50,094 nucleotides of DNA from a virus (taxonomy: Duplodnaviria > Heunggongvirae > Uroviricota > Caudoviricetes). Made by a program: the position numbers and the translations under genes. Every line of letters starts with the position of its first letter. Position 1 is the first letter of the stretch. Shown here piece after piece: positions 26,152 through 26,940 of this stretch. The notes beneath the pieces are model-generated. The model saw only the letters and a program-made list of their open reading frames with translations, was not told the DNA's origin and did no database searches. Location: positions 1-50,094 of the IMG/VR virus record IMGVR_UViG_2529292998_000004; one strand, given 5' to 3'.

Positions 26152-26625
26152 TTATTTCAGGCACTGAGTGCGGATATAGTCCTGTGCCCCTTCCAGTTGC
26201 TTGTGCATCGTCATCAGCCGCTCTCTGAGGGTGAAATAATCCCGTGTAACGGTGTCTGCCAGTTGGGGGCCGGTTGCATTATCCACGCCGGAGGTGGTGG
26301 GGGCTTCATGCACGGAGCCTGGACAGGTGGCGTTGATCCGCAGGCGCTTACGACCAGCGGCAACATCAGCGCGCAGAGTTTCATTTTCAGCTCTCGCATC
26401 GGATAATTCCCTCGAGTATTTTGCATCGAGCGCAGCAACATCGCGCTGGCGCACCTGCATATCAGTAATGGTTGCGTTCGCCAGCTTCAGTTCACTGGCT
26501 TTGTTATCGCGCTGCGCTTTGTAGGTAATCGCGTTATCACGGTAATGGTCTGTTGCCATCCACAGCGCACCACAGGCCACCAGCAGAATAACGATAAACG
26601 CGGAAAGCATTCGGTTTATGTTCAC
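26152..26625 (-). CDS. Rz: Spanin inner membrane subunit Rz
   Basis: 157 aa; ..[14 protein letters not shown]....[40 protein letters not shown].. as lambda Rz. Confidence 0.9.
26214..26399 (-). CDS. Rz1: Spanin outer membrane lipoprotein Rz1 (embedded in Rz, +1 frame)
   Basis: [20 protein letters not shown] lipobox then proline-rich ..[26 protein letters not shown] as lambda Rz1. Confidence 0.8.
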
Positions 26626-26753
26626 CCCAGCAACCCCGACGAAGACAACATCATCCAGGCCATGGAAAGAAAAAGAGCAACCAGCATTAGTGAAAATGAA
26701 ATGCCGACAATTACACAGAGGATCTTCGCCAGCGTTATGAGTTTGTCTGACAT
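26622..26753 (-). CDS. Small single-pass membrane protein (43 aa)
   Basis: Strong RBS GGGAGGA 7 nt upstream of [46 protein letters not shown]; stop overlaps Rz start. Confidence 0.45.
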
Positions 26754-26767
26754 GCTTAATCCTCCCT

Positions 26768-26940
26768 TCACGATTTCAACGCAATGACCAGTTTTGCCAG
26801 CCCATACAGCATCGGGGACACAGCAACACCGACCGCCACCCACTTAATGGCAAAAGCCAGTGCTCTGCTGATGTCATCAGTTACAGGCGCTTTCAGTTCA
26901 AGGCCATTTTTCATAGTCAACCTCAACAGAATTCGTTTAT
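26768..26940 (-). CDS. Small protein with C-terminal hydrophobic helix (57 aa)
   Basis: RBS AAGGGAGAA upstream of [63 protein letters not shown]. Confidence 0.4.

Follow-up and report, generated by a model that had tools for sequence, protein, structure and literature searches.

Which role is played by two small membrane protein genes that separate the endolysin gene R from the spanin gene Rz in a lambdoid prophage? The genes, open reading frame (ORF) 1 for 60 amino acids and ORF2 for 43 amino acids, lie on the minus strand of a stretch of Caudoviricetes DNA of 50,094 nucleotides (IMG/VR record IMGVR_UViG_2529292998_000004, positions 1 to 50,094), which at its full length is called the window. 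The window is an Escherichia coli lambdoid prophage, and the 551-base stretch around ORF1 and ORF2 is 100% identical in several E. coli chromosomes. ORF1 and ORF2 are real genes under purifying selection. Together with a preceding hairpin, they form the segment 26622-27016, a mobile accessory cassette at the R/Rz junction of the late operon. The products are tentatively read, at a probability of about 40%, as accessory, late-expressed inner-membrane microproteins that would modulate the membrane steps of lysis. Part of this is already known: both genes are catalogued as hypothetical, one homologue has been reported as translated, and the slot is a known insertion point. New are the corrected gene model, the hairpin in the mobile unit, a possible dual start, the separability of the two genes and a small family with paralogue arrays.

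Gene models and predicted membrane proteins

ORF2 occupies positions 26622-26753 (minus strand; ORF listing; PGAP WP_001280932.1), exactly as given in the preliminary description. Its ribosome-binding site GGGAGGA (26760-26766), read from the sequence, begins one nucleotide past the ORF1 stop codon and stands six nucleotides before the ATG at 26753. At its other end, ORF2 reaches the Rz start, in keeping with the proposed coupling. The longest Rz frame opens with a GTG at 26625, which the ORF2 stop codon TGA overlaps (GTGA, 26622-26625). If Rz begins instead with the ATG at 26610 that PGAP picks, ORF2 abuts Rz with a gap of 11 nucleotides. ORF1 covers positions 26768-26950 including the stop codon (minus strand; ORF listing; PGAP WP_001151823.1). 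The 60-amino-acid form is preceded by the ribosome-binding site AAGGGAG (26954-26960), likewise read from the sequence. The strong ribosome-binding sites reported initially for both genes are thus present. ORF1 had been described as a gene for 57 amino acids starting at 26940. It is a real small gene, but the delimitation was wrong: no start codon is located at 26940, and the available forms have 60 or 48 amino acids.

One membrane helix is predicted for each protein, in agreement with the preliminary description, and the hydrophobic segment of both exceeds the usual threshold. ORF2 is almost wholly one very hydrophobic helix. Its best 19-residue Kyte-Doolittle window reaches 2.89 (residues 11-29), and the AlphaFold model comprises a single helix from residue 2 to 38 with a predicted local distance difference test (pLDDT) value of 89. 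About 10-14 residues lie beyond the helix. ORF1 consists of a basic N-terminal helix, a hinge K-A-P at residues 20-22 and a long C-terminal hydrophobic helix, for which the best window is 1.88 (residues 38-56). The AlphaFold model (pLDDT 75) shows helices at residues 2-19 and 23-59, the latter of 37 residues, with the break at K-A-P. About 2-4 residues extend beyond the membrane helix.

No match for either protein was obtained in Pfam or NCBIfam. ORF1 matches the family profiles phrog_1115 (2.6e-42) and phrog_4493 (4.3e-30) and ORF2 matches phrog_4906 (2.1e-23), in each case significantly and over the full length; the functions of these families are unassigned. Neither ORF is a spanin, because a periplasm-spanning domain and a lipobox are missing; Rz and Rz1 are encoded separately in the window. 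A derivation of ORF2 from a duplicated Rz N-terminus was tried and rejected. Local alignments against five Rz N-termini with 2000 shuffles yielded z values from -1.6 to 3.0, and the scores were inconsistent between variants and no better than those against unrelated helices.

Purifying selection, distribution and translation

The sample comprised 226 related loci with 31 unique nucleotide sequences of ORF1 and 30 of ORF2. In more than 200 related loci, both reading frames have stayed open. The ratio of nonsynonymous to synonymous differences (pN/pS), summed over pairwise comparisons, was 0.28 in the annotated frame of ORF1 and 0.62 and 2.49 in the shifted frames. The corresponding values for ORF2 were 0.37, 0.86 and 1.67. 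In the same loci, pN/pS in the annotated frame was 0.12 for R, 0.16 for S and 0.36 for Rz. According to these values, ORF1 and ORF2 are constrained about as much as Rz and more weakly than R and S. Substitutions in both proteins keep the hydrophobic character.

The preliminary description had made the case for the two genes dependent on their conservation in related prophages and on a ribosome-profiling signal. Both ORFs proved to be conserved in many prophages. The same genes or direct homologues are 100% identical in many E. coli genomes and phages, and both are annotated as hypothetical proteins by PGAP under the accessions given above and also in phage records. DNA similar to a 551-base query (ORF1, ORF2 and flanks) was found in 2121 of 5426 complete E. 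coli genomes (about 39%), at a coverage of at least 80% in 989 of the complete genomes and in up to nine places per genome. A tblastn search that followed two species-wide contig pattern scans confirmed nothing; this search is probably weak for short hydrophobic queries and has no bearing on the taxonomic breadth. In the main texts of the literature, no mention of the peptide sequences, accessions or PHROG identifiers of ORF1 and ORF2 was found, and no relevant paper on genes between R and Rz as a topic.

A translation signal is on record for a homologue of ORF2. This homologue lies between ant and Rz in Shiga toxin (Stx) phages, and the original annotation of 933W leaves it uncalled. In E. 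coli O157:H7 Sakai, it is named XECs191, located between ant and Rz and now annotated as ECs_1966. XECs191 was listed as a novel translated gene by ribosome profiling (RIBOseq), with a predicted location in the inner membrane. In lysogeny broth (LB), the RNA signal was 30.0 and the RIBOseq signal 12.6 reads per kilobase per million mapped reads (RPKM), with a ribosomal coverage value of 0.43 and a coverage of 0.55 (PMC5597208). The signal is supportive rather than strong: it is low, was obtained with uninduced cultures and falls within a repeated region of prophage DNA. The expected profiling evidence exists in this limited form.

The ORFs might have little function of their own and hitch-hike with the lysis cassette, or ORF2 might mainly hand ribosomes to Rz by translational coupling. 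The kept stop/start overlap with Rz and the many near-identical copies agree with this explanation, as do frameshifted or truncated variants (P0105, P0113). The family is also very narrow. Protein homologues come nearly all from Escherichia in the case of ORF2 and from Escherichia and Salmonella in the case of ORF1, and a profile search with ORF1 in 1.84 billion representative proteins retrieved only 22 relatives. The clear purifying selection in the annotated frame with retention of the hydrophobic character, however, renders a minor function highly improbable. Furthermore, the genes are kept in several unrelated flanking contexts, and distant relatives of ORF1 retain the protein pattern on diverged DNA.

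Gene neighbourhoods of the cassette

In more than 190 of the 226 sampled loci, ORF1 and/or ORF2 are located between the endolysin gene and Rz. The order S-(DUF1327)-R-hairpin-ORF1-ORF2-Rz occurs in about 80 loci, and S-R-ant-ORF2-Rz in about 75 loci of Stx-type phages. A third type, present in 39 loci (e.g. L172), carries ORF1, an ORF2-like gene and a gene for a Cys-rich lipoprotein of 60 amino acids (phrog_7528) after two holin-like genes and a GH108 endolysin gene. The holin-like genes belong to the three-helix type PF05449 and to phrog_198, and the cassette is unrelated to that of the window; no recognisable Rz/Rz1 was found in it. ORF1 alone is present in the order R-hairpin-ORF1-Rz in L166. 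Arrays occur in L049, L213 and PhiR5_1, for example R-hairpin-ORF1-ORF2-ORF1 core-28-amino-acid paralogue-Rz, and L227 harbors two tandem ORF1 paralogues, each with its own upstream hairpin. ORF2 is found directly upstream of Rz in three different upstream contexts, i.e. after ORF1, after ant and in the PhiR5_1 array. Within the sampled loci, it was confined to lysis regions, with Rz or the small lipoprotein gene as the next gene in every case.

The preliminary description regarded the interruption of the series S-R-Rz as unusual. This view was not sustained, since the R-Rz gap is a common insertion slot in this phage group. The gene ant occupies it in 933W and other Stx phages, and similar DNA is widespread in the complete genomes mentioned above. 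In the Qin prophage of K-12, R and Rz are directly adjacent and ORF1 and ORF2 are missing. It is concluded from the arrangements that the gap is a general insertion slot and that ORF1 and ORF2 are separable units, ORF1 being a member of a small, mobile family of microprotein genes.

The lipoprotein gene of the third type was inspected in L172 (2501-3022). It starts with an ATG seven nucleotides past the stop codon of the ORF2-like gene and encodes the lipobox LVGC and a mature part of about 30 amino acids with three Cys residues. Size and Cys content resemble an outer-membrane spanin subunit; an inner-membrane partner was not found in this locus. A new two-part spanin composed of ORF2 and this lipoprotein was considered and rejected on geometry, as the periplasmic parts appear too short. 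A family of tiny membrane proteins, phrog_6632 (31-32 amino acids, ending in AIKG or ALRWW), occurs beside ORF1 or ORF2 relatives in L003 (3044-3139) and L228 (about 730-827). These contexts are quite different, the R-Rz gap in one case and a region of tail genes in the other.

The upstream hairpin and transcription

A terminator scan revealed a G+C-rich hairpin at 26984-27016. It is flanked by an A-tract and, on the opposite side, by a T-tract, and so has the shape of a two-way intrinsic terminator. It is located about 34 nucleotides upstream of the ORF1 start and was absent from the preliminary description. The hairpin stands at a constant distance before every ORF1-type gene, whatever lies further upstream, and also before the distant relatives in L227 and L228. 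The core stem does not vary. Inner pairs covary, one with eight double-sided changes and another one with two, and the A-run before and the T-run after the hairpin are kept among the loci. As the DNA further upstream differs completely between the contexts, the hairpin marks the left edge of the mobile cassette. Rfam gave only a chance-level match to the rimP leader over the hairpin (E = 0.094, 25.6 bits versus a gathering score of 47).

On the coding strand, a promoter scan gave no promoter-like site in the stretch from R to Rz, and no terminator hairpin was found between ORF2 and Rz. With a terminator in front and no promoter, ORF1 and ORF2 are most likely expressed only by read-through of Q-modified RNA polymerase. 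A similar terminator-like hairpin with a T-run is present at 28588-28616, about 30 nucleotides upstream of the holin start and after a gene for 627 amino acids (28699-30582). The layout at the holin start equals that at ORF1: hairpin, short spacer, gene. The two hairpins, before S and before ORF1, fit a late operon that is read through by antitermination. The simplest reading is a late operon punctuated by terminators that only Q-modified polymerase would pass, with the cassette expressed together with the lysis genes.

In the array locus L213, a perfect TTGACA and a perfect TATAAT follow directly after the hairpin (about 2160-2200). They lie upstream of another small membrane protein ORF (34-50 amino acids, phrog_12997). 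The hexamers are 13 nucleotides apart, which is too short for a standard promoter.

A possible second start of ORF1

The 60-amino-acid form of ORF1 is probably made. Wide variation in the N-terminal extension is limited to codons 2 and 6, and rare variants occur at codons 3, 4 and 9. The DNA of distant relatives has diverged, but still encodes the basic pattern Y-(K/R)-(K/R)-x-(F/L)-..-R-(L/I)-(T/S)-M. The mostly constant codons together with the maintained pattern argue for translation of the extension. For the same reasons, an untranslated leader over codons 2-7, where pN/pS is 2.5, was rejected. The first start (ATG or GTG) and a purine-rich site persist in L166, L168, L226 and L228, despite a replacement of the DNA that separates the start from the hairpin.

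A second form of 48 amino acids is plausible. Sequence conservation points to an internal start on the minus strand (26912-26924), with GAGG at 26921-26924, a spacer of six nucleotides and ATG at 26912-26914. Met13 is invariant. Three codons before it, arginine is encoded by the rare codon AGG in all 31 unique ORF1 sequences and also in the distant relatives of L227 and L228, and this codon always creates GAGG at the right distance. Many gene callers begin ORF1 at Met13 and report proteins of 48 amino acids. The shorter form would lack the basic N-terminus with its four basic residues. ORF1 thus has two conserved in-frame starts with ribosome-binding sites, a possible dual-start motif whose two products would differ in N-terminal charge.

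A possible antisense RNA over ORF1

A promoter-like site is present on the plus strand at 26914-26943, consisting of TAGTCA, 18 nucleotides and TATACT (promoter scan, match 9/12). It faces the two-way hairpin at a distance of 41 nucleotides. An RNA of about 75 nucleotides, ending at about 27022, would cover the start region of ORF1. These elements open a further explanation, a unit resembling type I toxin-antitoxin systems. ORF1 and its short paralogues would act as hydrophobic toxin, and the antisense RNA would hold down translation by covering the ribosome-binding site and start of ORF1. Both proteins fit the description of a small hydrophobic peptide (<60 amino acids) used for type I toxins. 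The A-tract that provides the U-run in antisense direction is part of the conserved cassette. In the second hexamer, every variant retains T, A and the final T; the sequence reads TATAAT in L228 and in several further loci. The tandem paralogues of L227, each behind its own hairpin, also suit such a unit. A likeness to known type I toxins is seen in the short paralogues (28-46 amino acids, ending in RWW). Short convergent RNAs have been described at insertion sites of lambdoid prophages (PMC4104026), as has a lysis-affecting hok/sok system in such prophages (PMC8621323).

Several results render this explanation distinctly improbable nevertheless. Promoter-like sites occur at chance density in the region, and parts of the hexamers are explained by conserved amino acids alone. 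Over the site, third codon positions are not significantly more conserved than elsewhere (4 of 11 versus 30 of 47 variable, p = 0.17). The predicted RNA folds with z = -2.9, mostly owing to the hairpin. No compensatory changes were seen in the first stem of this RNA. A second stem, predicted by the fold between hairpin and ORF1 start, was rejected as a conserved structure, since variants break it and do not compensate. No Rfam family matched the predicted RNA, and a promoter for a toxin mRNA was not found by the scan. Moreover, type I loci are free-standing, while ORF1 shares a tightly packed operon with ORF2 and Rz.

Lysis modulators or membrane-acting cargo

In the favored reading, the cassette would be expressed along with holin, endolysin and spanin by read-through from the late promoter. 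By the positive-inside rule, both would be inner-membrane proteins with a cytoplasmic N-terminus. They would probably act through helix-helix contacts and modulate the disruption of the envelope without being essential. The step affected could be holin triggering, in its timing or sharpness, the release of the membrane-tethered endolysin or the Rz step. ORF1 may occur in two forms differing in the basic N-terminal segment, following the logic of holin/antiholin pairs. ORF1, ORF2 and Rz are tightly packed on the strand of the lysis genes. A role in lysis is better supported for ORF2 than for ORF1, given that ORF2 constantly adjoins Rz or the small lipoprotein gene and is coupled with Rz.

Alternatively, the proteins may be membrane-acting cargo unrelated to lysis, for which the R-Rz gap is a tolerated slot. 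They would bind proteins of the host inner membrane, for instance sugar-transport components that other phages use for DNA entry, and confer superinfection exclusion or another fitness effect. The mobile cassette with its own boundary at the hairpin, the separable genes and the paralogue arrays that vary between phages speak for cargo, as does the presence of ant in the same slot. The slightly lower G+C content (46-48%, versus 53-55% for S, R and Rz) points the same way, although at third positions it is not clearly different from the neighbours. On the other hand, PADLOC gave no match at E <= 1 for ORF1, ORF2, the Stx variant or their neighbours, and no similarity to known exclusion proteins was found. 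The missing coding-strand promoter-like site and the missing terminator after the genes are unlike an insert of the type promoter-gene-terminator. The restriction of ORF2 to lysis regions argues in the same direction. Overall, a role as cargo is considered rather unlikely.

A number of observations weigh against modulation of lysis, some of them in favor of cargo. The link of either protein to lysis is drawn from sequence and gene context. No match to a holin, antiholin, releasin or spanin family was obtained in Pfam, NCBIfam and PHROGs; the sole PHROG match to a holin had E = 0.079 and concerned the Stx variant of ORF2. Late-only expression is deduced from the missing promoter match, and the RIBOseq signal of XECs191, together with its RNA, came from uninduced cultures. 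This low signal could reflect spontaneous induction or mis-mapping among the many prophage copies. In L167, a relative of ORF1 is inserted between a gene for a structural protein with immunoglobulin (Ig) domain and a minor tail gene. Another one, in L228, is closely followed by a large gene that probably encodes a tape-measure protein and by a distal tail (Dit)-like gene, a position resembling the slot of the exclusion gene gp15 in HK97. The variable arrays of ORF1-family paralogues likewise resemble general cargo. To our knowledge, phage lambda lacks both genes, and their absence there and in K-12 Qin indicates that they are dispensable. ORF1 and ORF2 are not an obligate pair, since each occurs without the other. 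Position by itself is weak evidence, because the R-Rz slot also holds ant, a gene unrelated to lysis.

Position and coupling thus favor a lysis modulator, especially for ORF2, while mobility, separability and relatives among tail genes favor cargo, especially for ORF1. Sequence alone cannot separate the two functions. An improbable extension combines several elements: the ORF1 family would constitute a mobile unit of hairpin and microprotein, with two starts, whose products with and without the basic N-terminus could have opposite membrane orientation or activity, and an antisense RNA ending at the hairpin as a second layer of control. Such units would fill insertion slots of late operons and, with the Rz-coupled ORF2, set the timing of lysis and hence the release of Shiga toxin and phage in a large share of E. 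coli prophages.

As found, ORF1 and ORF2 are two hypothetical genes, already catalogued, at a known site of insertion, and their presence will not surprise a specialist. About two in five complete E. coli genomes contain similar DNA. The ORF2 homologue adjoins Rz in Stx1 and Stx2 phages of enterohaemorrhagic E. coli, in which the timing of lysis governs the release of toxin and phage. Modulators of lysis would represent a missing part of the textbook lysis cassette and offer a handle on toxin release. Proteins for exclusion or toxin-like cargo would constitute a compact mobile family of phage membrane peptides.

Lysis cassette and other features of the window

The whole lysis cassette including ORF1 and ORF2 is encoded on the minus strand. 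It begins with a P21-type holin gene S (28333-28548, PF04971), followed by a DUF1327/YdfR gene (27984-28328) and the endolysin gene R (27107-27640; Phage_lysozyme, PF00959, 1.3e-23). According to hydropathy, the N-terminus of R contains a hydrophobic stretch, typical of signal-anchor-release endolysins. Rz (26152-26625; PF03245, 1e-46) encodes the inner-membrane spanin subunit. Rz1 (about 26214-26399, minus strand; PF06085, 3.2e-19) is embedded in Rz in another frame.

The junction of holin and endolysin is also interrupted, by the DUF1327/YdfR gene and by an ORF of 90 amino acids on the opposite strand (27746-28018), for which no Pfam match was obtained. Both junctions of the lysis cassette in the window therefore carry inserts. 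A possible counterpart of the 90-amino-acid ORF, an opposite-strand gene in the holin-endolysin interval of a related phage record, is labelled as DUF1823-containing. The motif GCAGAATATTTTGCTGAAAAAT is located at 27080-27103, after the R stop codon and upstream of the cassette. In L172, it occurs at 3036-3057, after the lipoprotein gene and thus on the downstream side of the cassette. The motif has the appearance of a recurrent junction sequence for the exchange of lambdoid modules.

On the 3' side of Rz, a small hydrophobic ORF of 46 amino acids is present (25661-25801, minus strand). It corresponds to the PGAP hypothetical protein WP_000347013.1 by position and length only and yielded no PHROG match. 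A YlcI/YnfO-family gene (25343-25528, plus strand) faces Rz. Its transcript could run antisense across Rz, ORF2 and ORF1 as far as the two-way hairpin. Elsewhere in the window, Rfam matches above the gathering score comprise IS009 RNA (225.7 bits), C4 antisense RNA (83.2 bits) and isrK Hfq-binding RNA (64.1 bits), all on the minus strand. Names and coordinates taken in their listed order, they are located at 1378-1576, 43811-43898 and 43934-44008.

Comparison with known systems

Holin/antiholin pairs from a dual start, e.g. lambda S105/S107 and phage 21 S68/S71, are small membrane proteins of lysis cassettes. ORF1 resembles them in its two in-frame starts with own ribosome-binding sites and in the extra basic N-terminal residues of the longer form. 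It differs in having one helix instead of two or three and an extension of 12 residues instead of 2-3, and its second start is a prediction. Furthermore, ORF1 matches no holin family, relatives occur outside lysis cassettes, and a true holin (S) is already present. Both proteins fit the description of a small membrane protein beside the endolysin with at least one helix, a feature that is not specific to holins.

Late-operon 'morons' such as ant in 933W and gp15 in HK97 are extra genes between conserved late genes that are missing from close relatives, as is the case for ORF1 and ORF2. HK97 gp15, an exclusion protein, is a small inner-membrane protein, as the products of ORF1 and ORF2 are predicted to be. 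With ant of 933W, the two genes share the use of the R-Rz slot. No homology to gp15 or ant exists. Unlike in a classic moron, which has its own promoter before and a terminator after the gene, no promoter was found by the scan and the hairpin precedes ORF1.

Like the releasin gp25 of phage Mu, ORF1 and ORF2 are non-holin membrane proteins encoded within a few genes downstream of a membrane-tethered endolysin. Mu gp25 is a DUF2730 protein of 99 amino acids with the N-terminus outside and an acidic cytoplasmic domain of 73 amino acids (PMC9239132). ORF1 and ORF2, with 43-60 amino acids, have no such cytoplasmic domain and no Pfam match. A releasin-like identity, as suggested in the preliminary description, is excluded by this family test.

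The hokW-sokW system of the Stx2 prophage Sp5 encodes a small inner-membrane peptide that alters when growth arrest and phage release take place (PMC8621323). ORF1 and ORF2 show no similarity to Hok and are packed in an operon with Rz, and an antisense RNA is a prediction in their case. Common to both systems are a small membrane peptide of a lambdoid prophage and, possibly, the geometry of an antisense RNA. Together with Mu gp25, HokW of Sp5 provides a precedent for extra small membrane proteins that tune lysis (PMC9239132; PMC8621323). LydC and LydD of phage P1 are a further precedent (PMC9025707).

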